Below the pieces are notes generated by a model. That model saw nothing but the letters and a program-made list of their open reading frames with translations, did no database searches and was not told the origin of the DNA. From an uncultured delta proteobacterium (GTDB lineage: Bacteria > Desulfobacterota > Binatia > UBA9968), in contig CAVSHR010000008.1 in NCBI GenBank assembly GCA_963727625.1, forward strand, positions 288,001 to 352,000: 64,000 bases of DNA, in the 5' to 3' direction. The translations under genes were made by a program, and so were the position numbers. Shown here in pieces: positions 314-53,102 of the stretch (its first letter is position 1; each line of letters opens with the position of its first letter).

Positions 314-805
314 TTATTCTGCGTGCTCCGAAACCCGTAGCGATGCCGCCCGACCTAGGAAAATATGGGCGCAGAGCAAGGGCAGGACCGCGATCCCGAT
401 CGCCCAGTGCGTGACGCTGCTCCATTGCCGAGCGGTATCGTCGGCCACGTAATAAAGCAGCCATCCGGTAACTGTCAGCAGGACGTTGATGCCGATTACA
501 ATGCAGCCCGACCTGCGATTGGCACGCAACGCGAAGCCACGGCGCACATGAATCGCAAGCGTTCCTAGCATCGCCAGGTAGATCAACATCGCCGCGCCAT
601 GCATTTTCATGGTCGCGCTTTGCAGCGAAGTCCGGACCGGCCCGAGATTGGGATCTTTCAGCCACTCGGCCACCAACCAGACGCTGCCGCTCAGCCAAAC
701 GAGGCCGAACAGGAGATAAAAAATCCGGCTGTGATTGGGCGCCAGTCGAACCCGCTCGTGAAGCAGCGCCAGGATCTTGCCGGCGCGCTGGTTAGCCTCC
801 GTCAT
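314..805 (-). CDS. 4-TM membrane protein with paired His residues, probable small b-type cytochrome partner of the flavinylation module
   Basis: Four hydrophobic segments; His in KMHG, AIHV, VTHW and CAHI; overlaps the apbE stop. Confidence 0.6.
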   Translation of the reverse strand: MTEANQRAGKILALLHERVRLAPNHSRIFYLLFGLVWLSGSVWLVAEWLKDPNLGPVRTSLQSATMKMHGAAMLIYLAMLGTLAIHVRRGFALRANRRSGCIVIGINVLLTVTGWLLYYVADDTARQWSSVTHWAIGIAVLPLLCAHIFLGRAASLRVSEHAE

Positions 806-1731
806 GGGGTTCCCTGTTTGCTCCCTCGATTACAGACCGGTAGCGTTTGCGAAAGATTCCAGTTCACGCCGCCTTCGGATGGTCGCAATTCAATGGCTTT
901 GGCCTCGAAGTGATCGAGCAAAGCCGCACCGGCTTGCCGGTCGAGCGCCAGCACTTTGGTCAACGCGTCAGCCCACATGCAGGCGGCGGCGATAACGGTG
1001 ACGCTGTGGCGCAGGTCGAGCATTTCTCCCGTGCGCGGGTCGAGGTAGGGACTTAGGAGTCTCGAAGCTACCTTGCGGCAGCGGATATAGCCGCTGCTTG
1101 TCGCCACTGCGCCCGTCTGAATCGTGCCGATGCAAAGAAGCCGCTGCGGCGCTGAAGGATCGCGGATCCATAGAGGGTCATTCCTGGCGCCGAAGATGCG
1201 AAAATCTCCGCCGGCATTGACACAGGCCGAAGTTGCGCCGGCTGCGGTCAGCGCTTCTAGGGCACGATCGACCGCAAATCCCTTGGCAATACCGCCGAGA
1301 TCGAGACGCATAGGGCGCCGCAGGCGGAGTCGACGGCGATCCAACAATTCGATGTCGCCCATCGTCCCATCGATCCGTCCGCGGGATTGTCGCCGCCAGG
1401 CCGGCAGAAAAGAATTGCGCTCCAAGCTTGCGCCGATGGTGATATCGAAGACCCCGCTGCTTAAAAAATGGAGTTTTTGGGCGGCCTCGATCACTTCGTA
1501 AGTCCAAGGGTGAACGGCTACGGCGGTAGCGCCACGGGCATTGAAAAGCCGGCCGAGATCGCTTTGTGGATCATGGGCGCTCATGTGCCGTTCGACTCTG
1601 GCGATTTGCCGAAACGCTCGTTCGATGGCGTGCACGGCTACGTCTTTCGAAAGGCCGCGCACGCGCATTTCGACAAACGTGCCGAGCATCGGCCGCATCC
1701 GGCGAACCTCAGTGTCTGGCCAGCGCGACAT
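802..1731 (-). CDS. apbE: FAD:protein FMN transferase ApbE
   Basis: MLGTFVE, FDITIG, LDLGGIAKGFAVD, VNAGGD, AVATSS and ADALTK motifs; start uncertain (1731 vs 1770). Confidence 0.92.
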   Translation of the reverse strand: MSRWPDTEVRRMRPMLGTFVEMRVRGLSKDVAVHAIERAFRQIARVERHMSAHDPQSDLGRLFNARGATAVAVHPWTYEVIEAAQKLHFLSSGVFDITIGASLERNSFLPAWRRQSRGRIDGTMGDIELLDRRRLRLRRPMRLDLGGIAKGFAVDRALEALTAAGATSACVNAGGDFRIFGARNDPLWIRDPSAPQRLLCIGTIQTGAVATSSGYIRCRKVASRLLSPYLDPRTGEMLDLRHSVTVIAAACMWADALTKVLALDRQAGAALLDHFEAKAIELRPSEGGVNWNLSQTLPVCNRGSKQGTP

Positions 1732-2242
1732 AATAAAGGGCCAGATTGCGGCGGATACCTTCGGTGACATGCTGGCACGAAAGTGTGGCGCCGCTAATGT
1801 TGCGAACGTCTTTGTCCAATTTCAAGCTGTCCGCCGCGCCTTTGCCGATAAACTGGGCGCGCCATGCTCGGTTTCTCACTCCGCCGCCAAAGCTCTCGCG
1901 GTATTCGAGGATTTCGACGCCGACGATCTTTCCATCAGGTCCGATGGCCATCGCGTAGGTGATGAACTCATGCTTGCCGTAAACTTCGTCGACAATCACC
2001 ACGCCCAAGCTTTGATGATGCGCCTTCGCTTCCCACACGCGATAGCGCTTGAGCCGCATGCGCGTGTGCGCGCGGCTTTCGATCTGCGCGATCTGAGACG
2101 CCGATAAATCCAGTTTTTGCTCCAGGAAAACATCCGCCGCCGGAAAGAACACGCGCTGTGCCTGCTCAACGGTGAGAAATTGCGCCGCATGGGCGGTGGC
2201 CGCCAGGACCGGCACGGAAAGGGTATAACGCAACAACTTCAT
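1709..2242 (-). CDS. Exported FMN-binding (flavinylated) protein
   Basis: Signal peptide ending AHA-A; NISGATLS flavinylation motif ([S/T]GA[S/T]); adjacent to apbE. Confidence 0.88.
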   Translation of the reverse strand: MKLLRYTLSVPVLAATAHAAQFLTVEQAQRVFFPAADVFLEQKLDLSASQIAQIESRAHTRMRLKRYRVWEAKAHHQSLGVVIVDEVYGKHEFITYAMAIGPDGKIVGVEILEYRESFGGGVRNRAWRAQFIGKGAADSLKLDKDVRNISGATLSCQHVTEGIRRNLALYYVALARH

Positions 2243-2253
2243 GGTCGACGACA

Positions 2254-3132
2254 TCAAAACACGTACGCGATCTTGAGCCTGAACTCGTAGCGTTCATGCT
2301 CACCGAGGTGTAAACCCGTCGGGCGCCCCAGCGTTCTTGGCCAACCGTGAATCTGCGGCAGGAAGGTAAGCGTGAACCACCATTTTTCCGAACCGTAGTG
2401 GAGGTTGGGGCCGAGAAAATACGCGCCATGCTCCTTCTTTCCGAACTCTGGATATTCGGAATGGTAGCGTCCTTCGATGCCTGCGAACCAGTTGGGCAGA
2501 ACGCGATACGAGGCGCCGACGGTATGCTCAACCTCGAGCTCTTTCTCCCGTTCCCCGCTCGCCGTGAATTTGCTCCACTCGGGTTCCAGGGTCAGATTGT
2601 AAGCGAGCGCGAGTTGGTCGTCGAAGAAGTTTTTCTGAAACATCAGTTTGGTTTCGAGGCCGAATTGGTTCATGCGCTCGCCGGAGATTTTGTGAATTCT
2701 CGAATAGGACGGCTCGAGATAGAGCGAGAGGCCGAACAGGTCCTTGTAGACGCTTAACAAGTTATATTTGAAAGCCACGTTGACGCCATCGAATTCCAGG
2801 CTGCGGCTTAAATTTCTCCCTGGATCGTCGTCCAGGGCGCCTCCGGCGATGCGGTGCGATCTGCCTTTGAGATAAAATGATGCTTGAAAGCGGTCGGTGA
2901 AGCCGTGCTCGAGTTCGAGCATCTCGTCCCAGCCCCGGTAGGTTCCCTTGCCCTTGCCGGTGCGAAGCGTCAACCAGTTGTAAATCTCGGTGCCGCCCTT
3001 GGGCAGGGTGTCCGTGCCATAAACATAGCCCCAGAGATTTTCATCGGCGCGAACTTGGTCGATTAGGAACGGCGCGGGAAGCAAGAGCGCGACAACGAGC
3101 GTCAAGTGAACAATAAACGAACGGTAGTACAT
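2254..3132 (-). CDS. Putative outer-membrane beta-barrel protein (DUF6662-like)
   Basis: Signal peptide, alternating amphipathic strands, C-terminal aromatic residue (IAYVF), GGAGAG RBS. Confidence 0.7.
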   Translation of the reverse strand: MYYRSFIVHLTLVVALLLPAPFLIDQVRADENLWGYVYGTDTLPKGGTEIYNWLTLRTGKGKGTYRGWDEMLELEHGFTDRFQASFYLKGRSHRIAGGALDDDPGRNLSRSLEFDGVNVAFKYNLLSVYKDLFGLSLYLEPSYSRIHKISGERMNQFGLETKLMFQKNFFDDQLALAYNLTLEPEWSKFTASGEREKELEVEHTVGASYRVLPNWFAGIEGRYHSEYPEFGKKEHGAYFLGPNLHYGSEKWWFTLTFLPQIHGWPRTLGRPTGLHLGEHERYEFRLKIAYVF

Positions 3133-3230
3133 TTTTCTCTCCTTCCAATGAGCAACAATTTGATTCGGCGACTGATATCAAATCTTCCGTTTGCCACCGG
3201 ACTCCGACGTCTCGGCGAATTATTTTTCGC

Positions 3231-3277
3231 AAAAATAAAAAGCCCAGGGTCCGCCGTTTATGACGGAACGCTGGGCT
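3231..3277 (-). terminator. Intrinsic terminator/attenuator inside the operon, upstream of the porin gene
   Basis: Minus strand AGCCCAG-cgttccgtcataaacggcggacc-CTGGGCT followed by TTTTATTTTT. Confidence 0.75.
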
Positions 3278-3331
3278 CTGGATTCTCGACCTCTGGCCGC
3301 TTAATTTAGCTCTTTAAAACCAAAAACTATC

Positions 3332-3523
3332 TCACAAATTCATGCGTATGCTCCCCTTGGCATCGAACGGCAGGATGACTTGCCGTTTACAGCGGCGGCA
3401 TTTGATTTCCACCCCGGTTTCCACCATGCGCGCGAGCAGACTGCCGCAACTGCAGCGCAGCGACGATGCGGATTTCGCGGCGGCGCCGGTCTTATTCTGT
3501 TTTAGCTCTAAACGGACCTGCAT
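3332..3523 (-). CDS. Small zinc-ribbon protein, phage Mu Com-like
   Basis: LRCSCGSLLAR...VEIKCRRCKR (CxC-x17-CxxC); ATG directly follows the ftr1 TAA. Confidence 0.7.
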   Translation of the reverse strand: MQVRLELKQNKTGAAAKSASSLRCSCGSLLARMVETGVEIKCRRCKRQVILPFDAKGSIRMNL

Positions 3524-5458
3524 TTACGTCTTCTTCCGTTCTCTGGCCAGCCAATACGATGTGGCGATGAATGCGCAAAGCATAAGACTTTGAGCCGCCA
3601 GAGTTTCGACCGTGGGGTAGATGCCGAGCAGCGGGACCGCTTTCGGTACGCTTAAAGGCGTCATCGGCACCCATAACGCCGCCTGGAGTTCTTTGATGCC
3701 GTTGCCGGCGAAGATGAACGCCATTATGTAAAGCAAAGTGCCGGTCGCCCCAAAGAAATATTTCAACGGTATTTTCAGCCCAAGCTTGAGGATGGCCATG
3801 GTGATGAGCACCAGTGCTGCAAGGCCCGCGGCTAGGCCCCAGAGTATCGAGGCATGGGTGCTTTCATTCTGCAGCCACAATGCCTGATAAAAGAGCACGA
3901 CTTCGAAGGCTTCCCGATAGACGGCGAAGAAGGAAATGCCCATCAGGCCAAAAACACTTTTGCTGGAAAGACTGTTTTTGACCTTGTCCTGGATAAACGC
4001 ATGCCACTTTTTCGCTTCGGACCGGGTATGGAGCCAAAAGCCTACATAAAACAGCGCCACCGCGGCAAAAATGGAAATAAATCCTTCCATACTCTCCCGG
4101 TGCTGACCGCTAAGCGTCAATACTGACTGGGTGGCCAACCAGGTCAGCCCGCCCAACACGAGGGCCAAAATCCAGCCTAAATGGATATAACGAATGGCTT
4201 CCTTCGCCCCCATCACTTTCAGCATCGCCAGGATTGCGGCCAAGATCAGCGTCGCCTCAAGCCCTTCTCGAAGAATGATGAGCGCAGAATTGGTGAAGGT
4301 GTAGTAACTGGAGAGATCATCTTGGCGCGCCAGCATTCGTTCGGCTTGATCGAGCTTGGTCTCCATCTCGCGATGGCGCTTATCTAGATCTTCGGCGGAA
4401 ACTCCTTGTTTGATCGCGTTGCGAAATTCCGTGAATTGGGTTTCGAGATTGCGGCCAAAAGTCATGTCTTTGGCGAATACGGCTGGTTCCGCCAGATCGT
4501 AGCCGTCAATGTACGCGTCGACGGCCTTTTGGTAAGCCTTTTCTTTGTCCCCCTGTTTGTAGAGCTCCACCGCCTCGCGCACGAGGCCGCGCGCGACCGA
4601 CAGGGGGTCGTTTGCCACTGCCTGCAAGTGGCCGCGCCGCAGGTAGGCGAGCATATTCATCGCGTCCGATTCGTTGCCGGCGTAGCTCTTCAGTTTGTCG
4701 AGCAGTTGAGCATCGCTGCTGGTCGCCAGGTTGGCGACGGTGAGCAAATCCGTCGGCACCTTTTTCTCTTGGAGCAGGCGCGCGCCGGCCTTGGAGGCGT
4801 CGTCGGAAAAGCGCAGCGTGAAGATATAGAAGGCGACCTGCCACCGCTGTTCTTCGGAGAGCGCGGCGAAGGAGGCCATTGCCGTGCCTTCGATACCGAA
4901 GCTTGCGGTATTGAAAACTTTAAACGGAGACAGCCCGCCGATCCGTTCGGGATCGGTAAAATTCGCCGGTGGCGGCGTTTTCGGGTTCATCGACTCGCGG
5001 CCCGAGCCATCGCCTTTGCCGGTGGCGCCGTGGCATTGAGCGCAGTTTTCGTCATAGATTGTCTTGCCGATGGCGAATGACGGCAGACGGCGCGGATAAG
5101 GGATAATGTTATAGCCGGCAATGAGTTTTTCCTTGACGCTCATTGCCGCCTCGGCGACAGCTTTAGGGTCGCCTTTGTTGCCGATTCGCTTAACCAGCGC
5201 GGTTAACTCAGATTCGACTCCCGCTTTGTCGGCCTTATCATTGGCCTTCAGCTGGTTGAAAATATCGACACTGCGTTTGGCAAATTCCTGCATCTCGCCG
5301 TACTCGTCCTGGCTCAGCACCTTGCCGTCCTGCACCGCGTTTTTATAGTCGCTGCCGAGATAGTCGAGCAACGCGACGAGTCGCCTCGCTTCGTCGGCAG
5401 CCCACAAACGCGGGCTGGCTGTCAGGAGTAGAAGGACGACGATTAGAATAATCCGCAT
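3524..5458 (-). CDS. Cytochrome c-FTR1 family iron permease fusion
   Basis: CAQCH heme motif; REGLE and REAFE (RExxE) motifs in a multi-TM C-terminal domain. Confidence 0.92.
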   Translation of the reverse strand: MRIILIVVLLLLTASPRLWAADEARRLVALLDYLGSDYKNAVQDGKVLSQDEYGEMQEFAKRSVDIFNQLKANDKADKAGVESELTALVKRIGNKGDPKAVAEAAMSVKEKLIAGYNIIPYPRRLPSFAIGKTIYDENCAQCHGATGKGDGSGRESMNPKTPPPANFTDPERIGGLSPFKVFNTASFGIEGTAMASFAALSEEQRWQVAFYIFTLRFSDDASKAGARLLQEKKVPTDLLTVANLATSSDAQLLDKLKSYAGNESDAMNMLAYLRRGHLQAVANDPLSVARGLVREAVELYKQGDKEKAYQKAVDAYIDGYDLAEPAVFAKDMTFGRNLETQFTEFRNAIKQGVSAEDLDKRHREMETKLDQAERMLARQDDLSSYYTFTNSALIILREGLEATLILAAILAMLKVMGAKEAIRYIHLGWILALVLGGLTWLATQSVLTLSGQHRESMEGFISIFAAVALFYVGFWLHTRSEAKKWHAFIQDKVKNSLSSKSVFGLMGISFFAVYREAFEVVLFYQALWLQNESTHASILWGLAAGLAALVLITMAILKLGLKIPLKYFFGATGTLLYIMAFIFAGNGIKELQAALWVPMTPLSVPKAVPLLGIYPTVETLAAQSLMLCAFIATSYWLARERKKT

Positions 5459-5503: not shown

Positions 5504-5537
5504 TTCGTATATGCAAATAAAAAAAGTTTGTCAATTC
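5504..5537 (-). promoter_or_regulatory. Promoter/operator of the ftr1 operon (TTGACA plus TTYG-N6-CGAA palindrome)
   Basis: Minus strand GAATTGACAAACTTTTTTTATTTGCATATACGAA, which aligns with the site at 5889-5922. Confidence 0.6.
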
Positions 5538-5943: not shown

Positions 5944-6612
5944 ATGGAAGCCCCGAGAGTTACCCACGCGATTGAAGATTATTTGAAGGCGATCTACCAG
6001 CTTTCATCCGAGGAAACGAAGCCGGTGATCGCAGCCAGGATCGCTGCTGAGACCGGCGTCTCGGCGTCGACGATCTTTGCCACCCTGCGCCGTCTGGCCA
6101 AAGAAGGTTACGTGACGATCAATCGGCGCAAGGAGATTCATCTGACCGACGACGGCAAGCGGGTAGCGGAAAACATCGTGCGGCGGCATTTTTTGACCGA
6201 GCGTTTTCTAACCGATCTGCTGGGGCTGGATTGGGTCAAGGCGCACCAGGAGGCGCACCGCCTGGAGCATGCGATATCGCAAGATGTAGAGGAACGGTTA
6301 GCGAAGTTGCTCAGCCATCCGACCACTTGCCCGCACGGCAATCCGATACCGGGTGCCAGTGCAAGCCCGCCGCCGAAGACGATGCCGCTGAGCGAGACCG
6401 TCGATGGACAGCAGGTCGAGCTCGATTACATTACCGAGGGCGGCGAGCGCGATGTGCGCCTGCTCGGTTACCTGCAGGATCACGGGTTACGCCCCGGCGC
6501 GAGAGTTCACGTGCTCGACGTGGCGCCGTCACTTGGCATGATGACGCTAAAGGTCAATGAGGAGGAGTTTTCCCTGGGAATCGAGGCGGCAAAGAAGATC
6601 CGCGTCCACTGA
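5944..6612 (+). CDS. DtxR/MntR family metal-dependent repressor with C-terminal FeoA domain
   Basis: IEDYLKAIY, EAHRLEHAIS, CPHGNPIP, GLRPGARV. Confidence 0.93.
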   Translation: MEAPRVTHAIEDYLKAIYQLSSEETKPVIAARIAAETGVSASTIFATLRRLAKEGYVTINRRKEIHLTDDGKRVAENIVRRHFLTERFLTDLLGLDWVKAHQEAHRLEHAISQDVEERLAKLLSHPTTCPHGNPIPGASASPPPKTMPLSETVDGQQVELDYITEGGERDVRLLGYLQDHGLRPGARVHVLDVAPSLGMMTLKVNEEEFSLGIEAAKKIRVH

Positions 6613-6631: not shown

Positions 6632-6907
6632 TTAGCTAGCTGCGATTGTGGCGGGTGGCTCCGCGCTTTGCTCTAGGCTGGTTTGCCGCTCGGCCAGCTC
6701 ACTGGCGAGAAATTCGATCTTGTCGCTCACCCGGGCATCGCGGTCGATCAAAATAAGTTCTTGACCATTGACCCGGCAGCTGCCGCTCTTGGGGCGGTAA
6801 CCGGCCTCACGCAACAGTTTCTCGGTGCGCACCTGGATGTTCAGCTGTTTGGCGCTGAGGATCAGTTCCTGAAGACGGGTTTCCTGCTTATTCTTGGTTT
6901 GGGCCAT
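6632..6907 (-). CDS. Hypothetical protein
   Basis: 91-aa ORF with protein-like composition filling the gap between genes. Confidence 0.6.
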   Translation of the reverse strand: MAQTKNKQETRLQELILSAKQLNIQVRTEKLLREAGYRPKSGSCRVNGQELILIDRDARVSDKIEFLASELAERQTSLEQSAEPPATIAAS

Positions 6908-21456: not shown

Positions 21457-22869
21457 ATGTCAGTCAAAGACGCCTTAGAGATGGCGAAGAAGAACAAAGC
21501 GGAGATCGTGGATTTGAAGTTTATCGACGTGCCGGGATTGTGGCAGCATTTTTCGATACCGGCCACGGAGTTAAGCGCGGATATCTTCGAGCAAGGGTTG
21601 GGGTTTGACGGATCGAGCATTCGGGGATTTCAGTCGATCAACGAATCGGACATGATATTGCTGCCCGACCCCGACAGCGCGATGATGGACCCGTTCACCG
21701 AGCACTCCACGATCAGCTTTATCTGCAACGTCCTGGACGCCATCACGCGCGAGCCCTACAGCAGGGATCCCCGCTACATCACCCAGAAAGCCGAGAAGTA
21801 TTTAAAGTCGAGCGGGATAGCCGACATCAGCTACTGGGGGCCCGAGATCGAGTTTTTTATATTCGACAGCGTGCGGTTCGACCAGAACCAGCACGAAGGG
21901 TACTACCACGTCGACTCCGAAGAAGCCTTTTGGAACTCCGGCAAAGAAGGAATCAATCTGGGAAACAAGATTCGCTACAAAGAAGGGTATTTCCCGGTCC
22001 CGCCCATGGACCAGTACCAGGATCTAAGATCCGAAATGGTATTGAACCTGCAGAAATGCGGGATCACGGTCGAAGTGCACCACCATGAGGTCGCCACCGG
22101 CGGGCAGACCGAGATCGACATGCGCTTTGACACCATGACCAAGATGGCCGACAAGGTGCTGCTGTATAAGTACGTGGTCAAGAACACGGCCAGGAAAAGA
22201 GGCAAGGTGGTCACGGTCATGCCCAAGCCCCTGTTTCAAGACAACGGCTCGGGCATGCACTGCCACCAGAGCCTGTGGAAAACCGGCAAGAATATCTTCT
22301 ACGACAAGAAGGGCTACGGGCTGATCAGCGACACGGCGAGATACTACATCGGCGGGCTGATCAAGCACGCCCACGCGCTGTGCGCCTTTATCGCCCCCAC
22401 GACTAATTCTTACCGGAGACTGGTGCCGGGCTACGAAGCGCCGATTAACTTGGTTTATTCGGCCAGAAACCGAAGCGCCTGCGTGAGAATCCCGATGTAC
22501 TCCACCAGCGAGAAGGCCAAGCGGCTGGAGTTTAGGACCCCCGACCCCAGCGCCAACCCGTACTTTGCCTTCCCGGCCATGCTGATGGCGGGACTGGACG
22601 GGATCCGCAACAAGACCGAGCCGCCCAAGCCGATCGACAAGAACTTGTATGAGTTGGAGCCCGAAGAGGCGGCCAAGGTGAAGTCGATGCCGGGGTCTCT
22701 GGATCAAGCGCTTGATGCCTTGGAGAAGGACCATGACTTCTTGCTCAAGGGGGATGTGTTTACCAAGGACGTGATCGAGACCTGGCTGGAGTACAAGAGA
22801 AAGCACGAAGTGGACCCCATCCGGCTCCGACCCCACCCCTGGGAGTTCGCTCTGTATTTCGATATCTGA
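21457..22869 (+). CDS. glnA: Glutamine synthetase type I
   Basis: [34 protein letters not shown], adenylylation-site motif DKNLYEL. Confidence 0.97.
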
Positions 22870-22870
22870 T

Positions 22871-22934
22871 CAGGACTGAGGGCTGAGGAAAATGACGAAG
22901 CTATTTGCTCGCGAGATTCCCAGCCCTCATCCTG
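22871..22934. repeat. Short tandem-repeat palindromic element (heptamer arms)
   Basis: AGGACTG-AGGGCTG-AGG ... CCCAGCCCTCATCCTG. Confidence 0.45.
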
Positions 22935-22964
22935 CGTTACTCATCAATTTTGGTGAGGGGCTGT

Positions 22965-23711
22965 ATGGAAGAGGTACTGGTATTTCAGCATGATCCTTTT
23001 GAGGATCTTGGCTTCTTTGCCGAGGTCCTGGAAAAACAAAGAGCCGATTTCCGGGTCGTGCGTCTATTCCATGGCGAGATGCCGAACGAAGAGTGGGAAA
23101 ATGTCAGCGCGTTGATTGTTCTCGGCGGTCCGATGAGTGTGGATGAGGAAGAACGTTTTTCTTTTCTGCGCTGGGAAAAAAGGATCATTCGGGCGGCGAT
23201 CGACGAAGCAGTGCCCATTCTCGGCGTTTGCCTCGGTGCGCAGTTGATTGCGGCGACATTGGGCACGCCGGTGTTTCATGGCGCGGTCAAGGAGATCGGC
23301 TGGAGCCCAATTTCGATCACACCCCATGGGCAGGTGGATTCGCTGCTGGGCTATCTGCCGGAGAACGCCACGGTGTTTCAGTGGCATGGCGATGGTTTCG
23401 ATTTGCCGGCGGGCGCGATTCGGTTGGCTACTTCGGCGCATTACAACACCCAGGCTTTTCGCGTCGGCAAAATGATTTACGGACTGCAGTTTCATCTCGA
23501 GGTGACGCCCAGGATGATCGAGCGATGGATCGGTGAACGATCGAAGGATTTGGCGCTGGCGCCTTATGTGCTGCCCGACAAGATTCTCGCCGACTCGAAC
23601 AACTACGCGCCCACGTTGAAGTACTACGCGGAGCGGTTTCTGTCGGAATTTTTGCGCCGGAGCTACCGTTCGCGCGGCGGTAAATCGGACGCAAGACAGG
23701 CAAGCGAATGA
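22965..23711 (+). CDS. Type 1 glutamine amidotransferase
   Basis: LIVLGGPMSV, LGVCLGAQL (nucleophile Cys), QWHGD, GLQFHLE. Confidence 0.92.
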   Translation: MEEVLVFQHDPFEDLGFFAEVLEKQRADFRVVRLFHGEMPNEEWENVSALIVLGGPMSVDEEERFSFLRWEKRIIRAAIDEAVPILGVCLGAQLIAATLGTPVFHGAVKEIGWSPISITPHGQVDSLLGYLPENATVFQWHGDGFDLPAGAIRLATSAHYNTQAFRVGKMIYGLQFHLEVTPRMIERWIGERSKDLALAPYVLPDKILADSNNYAPTLKYYAERFLSEFLRRSYRSRGGKSDARQASE

Positions 23712-24295
23712 AAAGGGTCCTGGTCATAGATGACCATGAGCTTTCGCGCCGTCATCTCGTTTCTATTCTATCCGAGGGCGGGTATGAGATTGCCGGTGAA
23801 GGGGTGAGCGGGAAAATCGCTCTTCCGCTGGCGCGCACGGCCGGTCCGGATGTCATTTTGATGGCCGTTGGCCTGCCGGATATTGACGGCATCGACGCTT
23901 CGCGCGACATGATGCAGTCCTACCCGGTGCCCATCGTTCTAACGACCAGCCACTACGACGCCGCCACCATCGAGCGCGCCAAACTCGCCGGCGTGATGGC
24001 CTATTTGGTCAAGCCGCTGAGGGCCGAAGAGCTCCATCCGGCCATCGAGTTGGCGATCACGCGCTTTCAGGAATTCGTCGCGCTAAGGGAAGAAAATTCC
24101 ACGCTCAAGGAAACTCTTGAGGCGCGCAAACAAATCGAGCGCGCCAAAGGCTTGTTGATGCAACAGCGAGGCATGTCCGAAGAGCAAGCGTATACGCTGA
24201 TCAAGAAAACCAGCATGAACCTGCGCAAGCCGATGGCTGAGGTTGCTCAAGCGATCATTTTGGCCGGTGGCATTTTTCGCAATGATAAAACTTGA
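23708..24295 (+). CDS. ANTAR-domain response regulator (NasT/AmiR-like); receiver lacks the canonical phospho-Asp
   Basis: REC domain with PDVILMAVGLP (D replaced by A) plus ARKQIERAKGLLM...SEEQAY..IKKTSMN. Confidence 0.92.
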   Translation: MKRVLVIDDHELSRRHLVSILSEGGYEIAGEGVSGKIALPLARTAGPDVILMAVGLPDIDGIDASRDMMQSYPVPIVLTTSHYDAATIERAKLAGVMAYLVKPLRAEELHPAIELAITRFQEFVALREENSTLKETLEARKQIERAKGLLMQQRGMSEEQAYTLIKKTSMNLRKPMAEVAQAIILAGGIFRNDKT

Positions 24296-24316
24296 CGTTT
24301 TAAGCATGTGGTAAGC

Positions 24317-24430
24317 TGCTGGCTCTCTAGGCAGGTTCTGACTTCAGCCTAGGCAGTCCACAAGCCGATTAGCAAAACTCATGAAAATAACGTCGATTTT
24401 TCTCTCTTTAGACATGGCATAGCGATTGCT
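24317..24430 (+). promoter_or_regulatory. Sigma-54 promoter with two NtrC-like sites
   Basis: TGGCATAGCGATTGCT (GG 24416, GC 24428); 17-mers ending AGGCA at 24317-24333 and 24339-24355. Confidence 0.75.
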
Positions 24431-24440
24431 GTTTTAAACC

Positions 24441-24510
24441 AACGTAGGCAACGACGCCTGCGTTGAGCAAAGGCGCTCATCGGGAATCCGATTGAGTGCC
24501 TTTTTTATTT
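24441..24510 (+). ncRNA. ANTAR-binding two-hairpin RNA overlapping an intrinsic terminator
   Basis: AACGTAGGC-AACGAC-GCCTGCGTT and TGAGC-AAAGGC-GCTCA (AxxG hexaloops closed by C-G); terminator AAAGGCGCTCA-TCGG...CCGA-TTGAGTGCCTTTTTT. Confidence 0.88.
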
Positions 24511-24528
24511 TGGGCTAAGGAGGTTGGC

Positions 24529-37748: not shown

Positions 37749-37825
37749 CGGGGCGTAGCGCAGCCTGGTAGCGCACCTGCCTTGGGCGCAGGGGGTCGGA
37801 AGTTCGAATCTTCTCGCCCCGACCA
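37749..37825 (+). tRNA. tRNA-Pro(TGG)
   Basis: Cloverleaf; anticodon arm CCTGC-CTTGGGC-GCAGG; CCA end. Confidence 0.95.
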
Positions 37826-37838
37826 TTCAGCAGTATGG

Positions 37839-37910
37839 AGTTATGAGTGCTGAGTGCTGAGCAATGCGGAACGAAAGAAGTTTGCCGCTCAGTCCTCAGC
37901 ACTTATTGCT
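37839..37910. repeat. Heptamer tandem-repeat palindrome in a tRNA spacer
   Basis: TGAGTGC-TGAGTGC-TGAGC ... GCTCAGTCCTCAGCACT. Confidence 0.55.
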
Positions 37911-37920
37911 CTAGGTCGTG

Positions 37921-37997
37921 GCGCCAGTAGCTCAGGTGGATAGAGCAACGGCCTTCTAAGCCGTAGGTCAGGGGTTCGAATCCCTTCTGGCGCGCCA
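37921..37997 (+). tRNA. tRNA-Arg(TCT)
   Basis: ACGGC-CTTCTAA-GCCGT; CCA end. Confidence 0.95.
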
Positions 37998-38018
37998 GCT
38001 TGGGGTTTCGGTTTTTGC

Positions 38019-38095
38019 GGTGAGTGTAGCTCAACGGTTAGAGCACTGGACTGTGGCTCCAGGGGTTGAGGGTTCAAATCCCTTCACTCACCCCA
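38019..38095 (+). tRNA. tRNA-His(GTG)
   Basis: CTGGA-CTGTGGC-TCCAG; G-1 and CCCA end. Confidence 0.95.
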
Positions 38096-38171
38096 GTTGA
38101 AAACAAAAAGGATGAAGGATAAGAGATGAAGTTCCTAATTATCCTTTCGTCTTTATCCTTCTCATTGTGTT

Positions 38172-38247
<76 letters not shown>

Positions 38248-38401
38248 TTTTTTTCCTTCCTGGGTGGTTCTTCCCCATCTCTCCGCGCACACGCTGTCGC
38301 GACCGTCAATGTTTGTTGTTAAGCGAATCGGCTGGTGCCATAATCGCTCCGGATAAGGCAAAACTCGATCGTTAGCCGCGTTCGGCGCAAGGAGCTGACA
38401 G

Positions 38402-38926
38402 ATGGCCGCAGAGGCGGGTCTCGTGTACACGATGTTGGTGGAAGTTTATCTCGAGGCGGCCGTCGTGCGCGGCGTTCTGGAAACCAATCAAGATCGGCTG
38501 AGCAGCTATTTAGCTGTCCGGCAGGGAGAAGAAGTATTCGCATTGAAAGAAGCGATACTGCAAGTCCCGGGTCGCGAGCCGGTGTCGGCCGGTTCCCACG
38601 AATATCTACTCTACATGCAGGAAGTATTGCTCATCGCCGACTTGAGCACCGAAGACCCGGCACGCCGCGCTGCTTTGCCGGGCTTGTTTGTTAAAAAAGA
38701 GAAAAGCAAAGCCTTACTTAGCGTCGGTTCATACCTTCTGCAGGGTAACCTACATTTGCAGGCTGGCAGTCCGTTGCAAGAATTTCTGATGGAAAACAGC
38801 CGCTTTCTTCCAGTCACCGAGGCAACGTTGGCGGATCGACCGGATATCGGACCACGCACCTATCTGGTCAACCGCGCCAAGATCGGCTTTCTATCAGCTC
38901 TGGGACAAGATTTGGTCGAATTTTAA
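38402..38926 (+). CDS. Hypothetical protein
   Basis: 174-aa ORF with AAGGAG RBS. Confidence 0.7.
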   Translation: MAAEAGLVYTMLVEVYLEAAVVRGVLETNQDRLSSYLAVRQGEEVFALKEAILQVPGREPVSAGSHEYLLYMQEVLLIADLSTEDPARRAALPGLFVKKEKSKALLSVGSYLLQGNLHLQAGSPLQEFLMENSRFLPVTEATLADRPDIGPRTYLVNRAKIGFLSALGQDLVEF

Positions 38927-38935
38927 AGGGTCGCA

Positions 38936-39259
38936 ATGGCAAGATCGAACCCAACGGAAATTAACCATATTAAATCGCGCAATGTTGTGCGCATAACCTG
39001 GGACGACGGCCACGCTGGCGAGTATGAGGAAATATTCCTGCGCGGCTACTGCCCCTGCGCACTTTGTCAGGGGCACGGAGCGCAGCGCCGTTTCGTCGAC
39101 GTACCGGATGCCAAATTGGTGGCAATTCGTCCGGTGGGCAACTATGCCATCGAGATCGGGTGGGATGACGGCCACAGCACCGGAATTTATACTTTCGACT
39201 ATTTGCGCTCTCTATGCCCCTGCAGCGAGTGTAAGGCGACGACAAGCGACAGTACATAA
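38936..39259 (+). CDS. DUF971 / GBBH-like N-terminal domain protein
   Basis: WDDGH...LRGYCPCALC...VGNYAI..WDDGHSTGIY. Confidence 0.9.
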   Translation: MARSNPTEINHIKSRNVVRITWDDGHAGEYEEIFLRGYCPCALCQGHGAQRRFVDVPDAKLVAIRPVGNYAIEIGWDDGHSTGIYTFDYLRSLCPCSECKATTSDST

Positions 39260-39664
39260 ATGCCGCGAACGACGATCGGCGCTCACCCATTCTCAAGAAT
39301 TTCCCCGGCCTCATGATGCGAAGTCCGCTGATGTACGCTTCGGCGACAGTTCTAGCCGAAGAGACAAGAGCTCGCGCATGGGAAGTTCCAGGAATCTTCT
39401 GCCTTTCCACGGCCAAGCGTTGATTTCCCTTTTGAAACAGACAACGGCGAGCGACGGTCAAGGTTACTCTTTGACAAGGTCGCGACGGGTATTTCTTCTG
39501 AAGATGAGGCGCGCCGGGTCGACCCGGATGGCTTGAGTTTAGTCAATCCGAACACACCTTAGGATTATCAATCGGCGCTGACACTTTGGAGCGCCCGGGC
39601 ACAGTGATGGCAAATTTGAGTAGGCTGCGGCTTTGGCGGCGCAAAAATTCGCTCCGGACGGTGC

Positions 39665-39693
39665 TTGACATACCGGTGGGTTATTTTTACTCT
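39665..39693 (+). promoter_or_regulatory. Sigma-70 promoter for tRNA-Leu/tig
   Basis: TTGACA-N17-TACTCT. Confidence 0.6.
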
Positions 39694-39745
39694 GCACTTC
39701 GAGTTGAAAAGGACTTCAGGAAATTTTGTTGCGAGCCCGCGGTGC

Positions 39746-39828
39746 GCGAGAGTGGCGGAACTGGCAGACGCACTAGACTTAGGATCTAGCGGGCAACCGT
39801 GGGGGTTCGAGTCCCCCCTCTCGCACCA
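39746..39828 (+). tRNA. tRNA-Leu(TAG)
   Basis: CTAGA-CTTAGGA-TCTAG; variable arm; CCA end. Confidence 0.95.
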
Positions 39829-46127: not shown

Positions 46128-46202
46128 GGGCGGTTAGCTCAGCGGGAGAGCATCGGCCTTACAAGCCGGGGGTCACAGGTTCAAATCCTGTACCGCCCAC
46201 CA
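46128..46202 (+). tRNA. tRNA-Val(TAC)
   Basis: TCGGC-CTTACAA-GCCGG; CCA end. Confidence 0.95.
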
Positions 46203-46228
46203 GGGGACGCACCAAAGAGCGCAATGTC

Positions 46229-46305
<77 letters not shown>

Positions 46306-51072: not shown

Positions 51073-51147
51073 GCTGGCGTAGCTCAACGGCAGAGCAGCT
51101 GATTTGTAATCAGCAGGTTGTAGGTTCAAGTCCTATCGCCAGCTCCA
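51073..51147 (+). tRNA. tRNA-Thr(TGT)
   Basis: GCTGA-TTTGTAA-TCAGC; CCA end. Confidence 0.95.
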
Positions 51148-51229
51148 GCCAGAAGAGTTCGATTGCTAGAGACCCGGTGCGATGCAGGCTTTTTAAAGGA
51201 AATGTTTTTAAGTGGGGGTGAAGAGAGAC

Positions 51230-51314
<85 letters not shown>

Positions 51315-51323
51315 TTTTTGATT

Positions 51324-51399
51324 GCGGGAATAGCTCAGTTGGTAGAGCGCAAGCCTTCCAAGCTTGGGGTCGCGGGTTCGAGTCCCGTTTCCCGCTCCA
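51324..51399 (+). tRNA. tRNA-Gly(TCC)
   Basis: CAAGC-CTTCCAA-GCTTG; CCA end. Confidence 0.95.
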
Positions 51400-51487
51400 A
51401 TTGCCTATGGCGGGTGGTAGATCACACATGGCCCAAAAAGCCCTAGGTGGAAAAATCGACCATGCGCCATAAGCCATCGACTGCTAG

Positions 51488-51560
51488 GCCCAGGTAGCTC
51501 AGTCGGTAGAGCACGTCCTTGGTAAGGACGAGGTCAGCGGTTCAATCCCGCTCCTGGGCT
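51488..51560 (+). tRNA. tRNA-Thr(GGT), CCA not encoded
   Basis: GTCC-TTGGTAA-GGAC anticodon arm; standard position before tuf. Confidence 0.92.
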
Positions 51561-51639
51561 TTGCCCGAACCTTGGTTCGAGAGCGCGCTAATTTTTACGG
51601 AAGAAGTTGATCGACTGGCAAATCAATCAGGAGGATGAG

Positions 51640-52830
51640 ATGAGCAAACAGAAGTTCGAGCGGAAAAAACCGCACCTTAACATCGGCACGATCGGTCACG
51701 TCGATCATGGTAAGACAACTCTGACTGCAGCGATTACGAAAGTTCTGGAAAAGTCGGGGAAGGCTAAATTCCTTGCCTACGACCAGATCGATAAGGCGCC
51801 CGAGGAGAGAGAGCGCGGCGTCACGATCAATATCGCCCATGTCGAGTATGAGACCGAGAAGCGTCATTATGCCCACGTCGATTGTCCCGGCCACGCGGAC
51901 TACGTAAAGAACATGATCACGGGTGCGGCGCAGATGGACGGCGCGATTCTAGTCGTTTCGGCCGCCGATGGACCGATGCCACAAACGCGCGAGCATATTC
52001 TGTTAGCGCGCCAAGTCGGAGTCCCGGCCATCGTGGTCTTCCTCAACAAGGCCGACATGGTCGATGATAAGGAGCTGCTCGAACTGGTTGAGTTGGAGGT
52101 GCGCGAACTTCTGTCCAAGTACAAATTCCCGGGCGACGATACGCCTATTATCATTGGCAGTGCATTGAAGGCGCTCGAAGGTGATACCTCAGAAATGGGC
52201 GAGGGCGCGATTTTGAAACTCATGGATGCGGTAGACTCCTTCGTTCAAGAACCGGTTCGCGATATCGACAAGCCTTTTATTATGCCGGTTGAGGATGTTT
52301 TCACTATCAGCGGCCGCGGCACGGTCGTGACTGGTCGTGTGGAGCGGGGTGTTGTCAAGGTTGGCGAGGAAATCGAGATTGTCGGCTTCAAGGCGACCCA
52401 GAAGACCGTTGCGACCGGCGTCGAAATGTTTCGCAAATTGCTCGACGAAGGTCAGGCCGGCGATAATATCGGCGTGCTGCTGCGCGGCACCAAGCGCGAG
52501 GATGTCGAGCGCGGCCAGGTTTTGGCCAAGCCAGGTAGCATTACTCCCCATACCAAATTTAACGCCGAAGCTTACGTTCTGACCAAAGAAGAGGGCGGGC
52601 GCCATACGCCGTTTTTTAACGGCTATCGGCCGCAGTTTTATTTTCGCACCACCGATGTTACCGGTGTCGTTAAATTGCCGGAAGGAACCGAGATGGTCAT
52701 GCCCGGTGATAATATCAATGTGGAGATCGAGTTGATCACTCCGGTTGCTATGGACGATGGACTGAAATTCGCTATTCGCGAGGGCGGGCGTACCGTCGGC
52801 GCGGGGGTTGTTACTAAAATTATTCAGTAG
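51640..52830 (+). CDS. tuf: Elongation factor Tu
   Basis: [18 protein letters not shown]. Confidence 0.99.
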
Positions 52831-52860
52831 GATAAGACCGGACTAGAAAGGTTGGGGGTT

Positions 52861-53013
52861 ATGCGGGAACTCGTAGGATTTGCTTGCGATAAGTGTAAGC
52901 GTAAAAATTACACGTCGACGAAGAACCGGAAATTAACGACCGAAAAATTATCGCTCAAAAAGTTTTGCTCATCTTGCCGGACCCATACCCTGCATCGTGA
53001 GGTAAAAGTCTAA
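52861..53013 (+). CDS. rpmG: 50S ribosomal protein L33 (Zn-binding C+ type); missing from the ORF track
   Basis: MRELVGFACDKCKRKNYTSTKNRK...KKFCSSCRTHTLHREVKV*. Confidence 0.95.
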   Translation: MRELVGFACDKCKRKNYTSTKNRKLTTEKLSLKKFCSSCRTHTLHREVKV

Positions 53014-53025
53014 AGGAGTTACAGC

Positions 53026-53102
53026 GGGTCAGTAGCTCCAATTGGTAGAGCGCCGGACTCCAAATCCGGTTGTTGCAGGTTCGAGTCCTGCCTGACCCGC
53101 CA
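53026..53102 (+). tRNA. tRNA-Trp(CCA)
   Basis: CCGGA-CTCCAAA-TCCGG; CCA end. Confidence 0.95.

Follow-up and report, generated by a model that had tools for sequence, protein, structure and literature searches.

The closest described counterpart of the system reported here is Com of phage Mu. The part of the study by Nowacka et al. (2019; PMC6483171) on which we draw describes Com as an RNA binder and activator that recognizes 5'-CC(N)2-3GAG-3' with the GA accessible; several such motifs lie beside the structure that inhibits mom translation, in part overlapping it, and binding of Com is thought to melt this inhibitory structure. Here we describe a locus of similar design in a 64,000-nt stretch of DNA (referred to as the window) from an uncultured delta proteobacterium of the Binatia (contig CAVSHR010000008.1, positions 288,001 to 352,000). 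Like Com, the protein encoded there, which we call ZR, has about 60 amino acids and a gene directly upstream of the one that it would regulate, and its four cysteines align with those of the Com zinc finger. Past the ZR stop codon is a conserved RNA element in which two short repeats lead into a terminator hairpin, and comparison with related loci makes it probable, in our view, though with real room for doubt, that binding of ZR to the repeats opens the hairpin and thereby turns on iron-uptake genes. Unlike Com, ZR has a chromosomal setting with no mom. Its neighbors in the window and in 80 related loci are iron-uptake genes, not the Mu-like phage context found upstream of mom, and no phage-related family was recognized among the eight open reading frames (ORFs) scanned between positions 314 and 6907. 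An earlier reading of the window, made from the sequence only, had stated that no phage genes are nearby, and this holds for the interval scanned. The two systems also differ in the hairpin itself: in the window, as in most lower-GC loci, it is a transcription terminator, whereas that of mom blocks translation. In high-GC relatives, the hairpin hides the Shine-Dalgarno (SD) sequence or start codon, as the mom structure does. Finally, the ZR system has several target sites per locus, unlike Com.

Other known systems share parts of this design. For the BglG/LicT antiterminators, the ribonucleic antiterminator (RAT) site overlaps the 5' arm of the terminator, termination is the default, and the protein allows read-through. 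The candidate binding site of ZR likewise overlaps the 5' arm of a leader terminator; however, ZR lacks CAT and PRD domains (Pfam), no antiterminator hairpin exclusive with the terminator was seen in its element (a small hairpin, P1, can coexist with the terminator), and the sugar-phosphorylation control of BglG/LicT has no counterpart with ZR. TRAP and HutP bind leader RNA where it is single stranded, at short, spaced triplets of the GAG/UAG type beside a terminator. They are oligomeric rings that bind many repeats and respond to amino acid ligands, and TRAP promotes termination. Spaced triplet repeats by a terminator are a point of similarity with ZR, but the folds are unrelated. ANTAR regulators, of which the window encodes one (23708..24295), are RNA binding and act on leader terminators, as proposed for ZR. 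The sequence-only reading had called the two architecturally alike, and the likeness is one of function only: ZR has neither an ANTAR nor a receiver domain, and its element consists of a 3-bp hairpin and single-stranded repeats rather than the two-hairpin ANTAR target. HemP/HmuP is a small protein, without a zinc ribbon, that is encoded just upstream of TonB-dependent iron/heme uptake genes and is needed for their expression. ZR belongs to an unrelated sequence family, with no HemP match among Pfam results at E<=10, and we know of no RNA element that the two have in common. In the literature searched (open literature, with subscription journals outside the search), we found no description of a function or RNA element for the ZR family. 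What is already known is that automatic annotation labels ZR relatives "Com family"; what would be new is a Com-type activation that serves a chromosomal iron regulon and that, in most lower-GC loci, acts on transcription termination.

The ZR gene and the parts of the RNA element are located in the window as follows.

3332..3523 (-): 63-amino-acid ORF encoding ZR, a Com-like zinc-ribbon protein with C24, C26, C42, and C45
3231..3302 (-): conserved RNA element of ~70 nt (5' single strand, two repeats, P1, terminator, U-tract)
3291..3296 (-): repeat 1, CCAGAG, read from the sequence
3281..3291 (-): P1 mini-hairpin (G3291-C3281, G3290-U3282, U3289-A3283; loop CGAGA), from RNAalifold
3276..3281 (-): repeat 2, CCAGAG, with AGAG as the base of the terminator 5' arm
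3239..3279 (-): terminator hairpin, outer stem AGAGCCCAG (3279-3271) / CTGGGCTTT (3247-3239), with a variable inner stem
3231..3241 (-): U-tract TTTTTATTTTT, read directly

The ATG of the ZR gene directly abuts the TAA of a 644-amino-acid cytochrome c-FTR1 ORF, and the conserved bases of the element begin at 3301(-), 30 nt past the ZR stop codon. The sequence-only reading had described a 63-amino-acid CxC-x17-CxxC protein coupled to ftr1. The length and the TAA-ATG junction are correct, and the spacing needs amendment, since cysteines at positions 24, 26, 42, and 45 give the pattern CxC-x15-CxxC. Its statement that the last repeat runs into the 5' arm of a strong terminator is borne out: the hairpin-then-U-tract arrangement of an intrinsic terminator is present at 3279-3231(-), and the segment 3215-3340(-) folds at -41.8 kcal/mol (z = -3.77), a value equaled by 0 of 200 shuffles. 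This hairpin is absent from the output of a simple terminator consensus scan. We built a covariance model of the element (R1) and counted as strong those matches that were full length with E<=0.003. The window element scores 75.4 bits (E 4.5e-16) and is the sole full-length R1 match in the 64 kb, with filters off. Rfam 15 at gathering scores finds only the 12 tRNAs in the window, and its best matches within 3100-3400 (E 2.1 and 5.8) are to unrelated families.

ZR belongs to a conserved protein family. A word-indexed search returned 73 homologues, mostly of 55 to 77 amino acids, and when 1.84 billion representative proteins were searched with a profile, the numbers passing E<=1e-3 and E<=1e-10 were 1176 and 579, respectively. 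When 72 members were aligned, the invariant core read CGSLLAR...KCRRCKR; C26, C42, and C45 were invariant, C24 was present in at least 90%, and the first cysteine pair was CxC across the whole family. A scan of species-representative genomes identified 386 encoded relatives. The locus counts given below refer to the best 80 of these 386 matches, and thus to closer relatives, and "81 regions" denotes the 80 loci plus the window. By record title, the 80 loci are mostly from Binatia, "Deltaproteobacteria," and Myxococcota, with cultured Corallococcus and Sorangium among them. Two loci carry two ZR genes each, L006 (6001 and 8313) and L070 (5290 and 6001), and the second copy in L006 has elements both before and after it. 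At L031:5986-7515, the ZR frame is open into the downstream porin-like ORF, giving 509 amino acids in one frame, which could be a fusion, a read-through product, or a sequencing error.

A conserved repeat and terminator downstream of homologues had been set in advance by the sequence-only reading as the feature whose absence would count against it, and such an arrangement was found. The motif GAGCCC, with GGCC no more than 30 nt upstream, occurs in 58 of the 81 regions downstream of ZR (of which L036 and L067, at least, look like chance), compared with 3 of the 81 reverse complements, 77 of 2740 other locus segments, and a mean of 2.5 and a maximum of 7 in shuffles. A strong hairpin with a T-run after it lies within 260 nt past the ZR stop codon in 43 of the 81 regions. 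The consensus of 41 copies is AG(C/A)GGCCAG(A/C)G(G/A)U(C/U)..(G/A)AA(C/U)CCAGAGCCCGG - variable hairpin - CCGGGCU(C/U)UUUU. A strong R1 match is found 11 to 163 nt past the ZR stop codon in 42 of the 80 loci, as well as in the window, and weak matches (E 0.03 to 0.6) are found past ZR in eight further loci. All 62 full-length strong matches in the window and loci are on the ZR strand. A repetitive extragenic palindrome (REP)-like repeat was rejected as an identity for the element: there is one copy in the 64 kb, and all copies have the same orientation within iron loci.

The pairing of the element is also conserved. Structure statistics were calculated on 63 aligned matches, namely, the 62 full-length matches and one partial match on the opposite strand. 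Across these, 97.5% of cells are paired and six pairs change on both sides, a result that 0 of 500 shuffles reach. For the outer nine pairs of the terminator, 96.8% are paired, and four pairs have changes on both sides (63 sequences). The inner stem varies in length and sequence with pairing always kept. RNAalifold applied to the element returns the 3-bp P1 and the base of the terminator stem. The middle pair of P1 is GC in 21, AU in 10, GU in 9, and AC in 1 of the 41 copies and, counted over the 63 sequences, GC in 34, GU in 14, AU in 12, UA in 1, and unpaired in 1. Neither RNAalifold nor inspection of the alignment revealed an alternative antiterminator hairpin, and P1 is compatible with the terminator. 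That no RNA-only antiterminator was found argues for a trans-acting factor.

Repeat statistics were taken from the 56 of the 63 aligned matches that could be parsed by a simple pattern. Repeat 1 reads CCAGAG in 33 and CCAGCG in 20, and differs from both in 3; for repeat 2, the counts are 49 for CCAGAG, 4 for CCGGAG, and 3 for CCCGAG; and the spacer between them is 9 nt in 47 of the 56. The conserved unit is thus CCNGNG, present twice per element, and at the foot of the terminator stem, beside the U-tract, the lowest pairs are made by the GAG of repeat 2. The sequence-only reading had drawn GAG/CC-rich repeats here; the two CCNGNG units are conserved, while a middle GAG that it had included (GTC-GAG-AAT, in the P1 loop) is not kept in relatives. 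The repeats, CCAG(A/C)G and CCNGAG, resemble the Com target CC(N)2-3GAG as given in the portion of the Com study used here (PMC6483171). A role for the "GAGGU" of repeat 1 as part of a leader peptide or as an SD-like sequence was considered and dropped, as there is no start codon and the CCAGCG variant occurs in 20 of 56 elements.

Profile comparisons relate ZR to Com. The ZR profile A1 aligned with Mu Com (AF083977) at 94.7% (E 5.6e-8; hhalign), with all four cysteines paired and a one-residue gap in the first knuckle, and with an alignment of 19 Com relatives at 96.4% (E 1.1e-9; 35 columns; hhalign). The likeness to Com drawn in the sequence-only reading therefore holds at the level of profile-profile comparison, but a search with the hidden Markov model (HMM) of the curated Com family, PF10122, remained below threshold (see below). 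Fifteen of the 73 homologues carry the name "phage FluMu protein Com" from one source, and Atlas clusters neighboring ZR are named Com family. A tblastn search of phage records with ZR gave just two weak matches (E 0.6), both in Mu-like inserts. No meaningful Pfam or NCBIfam match to ZR was obtained even at E<=10, a PDB sequence search with the profile of the family yielded nothing beyond weak matches to zinc knuckles (the best, E 0.11, to uS14), and the AlphaFold2 model of ZR (three strands; mean pLDDT 60, core blocks 68 to 79) had no Foldseek match in the PDB at E<=0.001. A Bfd-type [2Fe-2S] homology, suggested by the CxC...CxxC pattern, was dropped, as there was no such Pfam match at E<=10. 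We therefore regard ZR as homologous to the Com zinc finger but diverged from it, and as lying outside the curated family. Tandem two-module ZR proteins of 71 to 127 amino acids exist (P0074, P0077, P0080, P0081, P0100, P0107, and P0142), and their two domains fit the two RNA repeats.

The genes around ZR and the element in the window are largely those of an iron-uptake locus.

5944..6612 (+): gene for a DtxR/MntR-family metal-dependent repressor (Pfam Fe_dep_repr_C, 1.7e-30; FeoA; Fe_dep_repress), divergent from the ftr1 operon
5505..5534 (-): promoter/operator-like motif TTGACAAA-N8-ATTT-NN-ATATACGA, an exact consensus match upstream of cytochrome c-ftr1
3524..5458 (-): cytochrome c-FTR1 iron permease fusion, 644 amino acids (Pfam FTR1, 4.2e-38; Cytochrom_C, 4.6e-12)
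2254..3132 (-): DUF6662 protein (Pfam DUF6662, 4.5e-42), the first gene past the RNA element
1709..2257 (-): FMN_bind protein (Pfam, 8.7e-11)
802..1770 (-): ApbE-family flavin transferase (Pfam, 1.7e-47)
314..805 (-): membrane protein of 163 amino acids, DUF4405-like (nearest Atlas clusters named DUF4405)

The U-tract is separated from the start of the DUF6662 gene by 98 nt. The downstream genes had been read from the sequence as encoding a porin, an FMN-binding protein, ApbE, and a cytochrome b; Pfam supports FMN_bind and ApbE, the DUF6662 protein is not shown to be a porin, and cytochrome b is only a lead. The 163-amino-acid protein (314..805) has no Pfam or NCBIfam match, and PF01292 occurs in 17% of one neighboring Atlas cluster. 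Pfam does confirm the DtxR-family gene that had been proposed; its product scores under the cutoff with the NCBIfam DtxR and MntR models.

Among the relatives, a cytochrome c-FTR1 gene precedes ZR in 38 of the 80 loci, usually 0 to 50 nt away; elsewhere, ZR is preceded by FeoB (L019 and L051), by a Fur gene (L018 and L074), or, in other loci, by a divergent gene. Downstream, on the same strand, are genes for DUF6662 or OmpL-like porins followed by FMN_bind and ApbE; in other loci, ExbB-ExbD-TonB-TonB-dependent receptor operons, with receptors directly downstream in Corallococcus; and in further loci, cupredoxin, multicopper oxidase, or cytochrome c peroxidase-like genes. Because the downstream operon varies among relatives, the link is between ZR and the element and not between ZR and the porin/FMN/ApbE genes. 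A census of the gene next to each of the 62 strong elements found a small 64- to 70-amino-acid Cys/His protein, followed by ExbB or DUF4198, in 20 cases; an OmpL-like porin in 8 and DUF6662 in 7 (15 porin-like in total); a cupredoxin in 7; ZR itself in 5; families of ~100 and ~95 amino acids in 3 each; a peroxidase-like protein in 2; ExbB and a multicopper oxidase in 1 each; and an unclassified gene in 5. Strong elements number two or three in each of ten loci. An element lies directly before ZR in L037 and L058, which suggests autoregulation. In L062, an element (2788-2863) lies between ftr1 and DUF6662 with no ZR there; 3 kb downstream, past the flavin genes, come ZR (6001-6361) and then a second element.

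The 64- to 70-amino-acid family (L029:6393-6605, L004:10258-10470, L011:6411.., L040:7490-7690, and L021:6292..) has the core RWS(V/I)SLC(N)CS..T(A/V)H(F/L)HYG..LHI...KKGL(V/L)Q and no Pfam match, and its Cys/His pattern suggests metal binding. The ~100- and ~95-amino-acid families (L022:6249-6551, L034:6203-6505, and L050:751-1044; L046:4585-4866 and L014:6344-6637) have no significant Pfam match, the one subthreshold match being to DUF6890 (E 0.0074).

Two expression platforms appear to follow the same 5' motif. In lower-GC loci, the hairpin is followed by 5 to 8 U residues in the next nine bases; element hairpins range from -17 to -37 kcal/mol. High-GC Myxococcota keep the 5' motif, and the partner arm differs: in L026, L064, L071, and L077, it holds the SD sequence and ends at the start codon, and in Corallococcus, which has the repeat variant CC-NN-GAG, its pairing is with the opening codons of the receptor gene.

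The promoter-like motif helps to place the element within transcripts. We found 42 sites with no more than three mismatches in the window and the 80 loci (41 of them in the loci), all on the ZR strand. They lie upstream of ftr1/ABC operons and, in ExbB-type loci, directly upstream of elements. The motif probably marks the metal regulon of the clade. In ExbB-type loci, transcription would start within a few bases of AGCGG, and an SD sequence and start codon follow about 7 to 18 nt past the element. With the promoter motif just before the element and the SD sequence just after it, these loci have no room for a second promoter, and this layout would require an antiterminator.

The evidence agrees best with the central idea of the sequence-only reading, which had cast ZR as a repeat-binding antiterminator, and we propose the following sequence of events for the window. 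Cytochrome c-ftr1 and ZR would be transcribed from the conserved, presumably metal-repressed promoter at 5534..5505, and 30 nt past ZR the transcript would carry a leader with the two repeats, the second of which forms the lowest base pairs of the terminator. By default, transcription would stop at this terminator. Once ZR has accumulated, it would bind the repeats, possibly as two copies; with the GAG at the base of the stem held by ZR and kept unpaired, the hairpin would no longer reach the U-tract, and transcription would proceed into the DUF6662, FMN_bind, ApbE, and DUF4405-like genes. Since ZR would come from the same transcript as the element, read-through after ZR has built up would act as a delay or an AND gate beneath the repressor. 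In other loci, the leader sits behind its own copy of the promoter, directly before periplasmic and outer-membrane iron-uptake genes, and in high-GC Myxococcota ZR would free the SD sequence or start codon and activate translation, as Com does for mom. In this scheme, we infer RNA binding by ZR, activation as the direction of its effect, and the delay or AND-gate logic.

Several observations weigh against this proposal. The support for it is comparative throughout. The curated model PF10122 (Zn_ribbon_Com) gives ZR no match at E<=10, so that ZR falls outside the membership defined by that HMM; of the 72 aligned relatives it picks up only 7 at E<=1, with 0.056 as the lowest value, while Mu Com itself, as a control, is matched at 2.7e-9. 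The first knuckle of ZR is CxC, not CxxC. Within the element, the spacer is 1 nt (CC-N-GAG), compared with 2 to 3 nt in the Com target as stated in the cited portion of PMC6483171; repeat 1 has no GAG (CCAGCG) in 20 of 56 elements; and R1 found no match in the Mu com-mom region or in a Mu-like insert. About 20 of the 80 loci have no recognizable element after ZR. In the window, the 98 nt before DUF6662 may contain a separate promoter, and the abutment of ZR on ftr1 in 38 of 80 loci also fits a role for ZR with the permease.

This last point underlies the main rival, in which the element would be a riboregulator that works without ZR, whether as a small leader sensing a ligand or an ion, as a target for some other factor, or as the source of a leader-derived small RNA, and ZR would be only a co-regulated iron-regulon protein serving the permease, for example, a cytosolic Fe- or Zn-binding accessory of FTR1 or FeoB. 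A four-cysteine site could hold iron, and ZR abuts ftr1 as just noted and follows FeoB in L019 and L051. Elements lie up to 4 kb from ZR, the L062 element has no ZR at that spot, and elements with their own promoter would yield a discrete terminated RNA of ~70 nt. However, the 5' part of the element, about 30 nt long and mostly single stranded save for a hairpin of 3 bp, offers little room for a ligand pocket. Moreover, ZR is found without FTR1 in about half of the loci and still directly precedes the element there; it also shares homology with the zinc finger of Com, an RNA binder, and the repeats resemble the motif given for Com in the part of PMC6483171 cited here. We judge this rival, although the main one, unlikely.

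The genomic association of ZR with the element would be the same if ZR bound the element and acted negatively or on RNA fate, by stabilizing the hairpin or by protecting or processing the 3' end of the ftr1-ZR transcript. Several RNA-binding attenuation proteins, TRAP and PyrR among them, promote termination. Nevertheless, the hairpins are strong unaided (-17 to -37 kcal/mol, with 5 to 8 U residues in the next 9 nt), a repressor acting on a default-off terminator between promoter and SD sequence would leave no route to expression, and Com is an activator according to the portion of PMC6483171 used here. A negative or RNA-fate role thus seems improbable to us.

We give still less credence to ZR as a DNA-binding transcription factor that acts on the motif in double-stranded form, a function for which the automatic name "Com family DNA-binding transcriptional regulator," carried by Com relatives and Atlas clusters, might be taken to speak. 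The motif lies in transcribed sequence, downstream of the promoter motif, and is coupled to covarying stems; all 62 full-length strong matches are on the ZR strand; and Com is documented as an RNA binder (PMC6483171, in the part cited). An ordinary operon-end terminator beside an unrelated or spurious small ORF can be virtually dismissed, for although a hairpin and U-tract would end the ftr1 transcript anyway, conservation of the ORF at the protein level extends to 73 clusters in the word search and 1176 representative clusters in the profile search, the 5' motif is kept far more often than chance would allow, and additional copies stand ahead of other genes.

Returning to ZR as an activator that opens the hairpin, a bolder version of the proposal may be put forward as speculation, and we doubt that it holds in full. 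In it, a pair of Com-derived fingers on two repeats spaced by 15 nt would open terminators and SD hairpins regulon-wide in Binatia, Myxococcota, and their neighbors; the CxC...CxxC site would report metal or redox state (Fe versus Zn, or thiol oxidation); and the uptake machinery of the outer membrane and periplasm would be released only when the transcriptional repressor and ZR agree.

Were the activator proposal correct, Com, so far a one-off phage finger that activates a single mRNA, would be joined by a large chromosomal family (386 genome relatives; at E<=1e-3, 1176 protein clusters), each with a conserved RNA target, and Com-like fingers would become a general class of bacterial riboregulators. 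Iron regulation in soil phyla that have received little study would gain a postinitiation layer, and Rfam would gain an RNA family that it lacks. The system would also offer a case of platform swapping, with one sensor motif wired to termination and to translation. Strains of Corallococcus and Sorangium carry it, which makes it testable in culture.

Other features of the window were recorded in passing. A 91-amino-acid ORF at 6632-6907(-), with no Pfam match, adjoins the DtxR-family gene and, by tblastn, is kept beside it in most loci that have that gene. At 21457-24520(+) are genes for a glutamine synthetase, a GATase-domain protein, and the receiver-ANTAR response regulator mentioned above (23708..24295[+]; Pfam ANTAR, 4.4e-22), which is followed by a hairpin and T-run near 24440-24510; of the ANTAR switch named in the sequence-only reading, at least the protein is thus present. 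The twelve tRNA genes form three clusters, at 37749-39825, 46128-46302, and 51073-53099(+).

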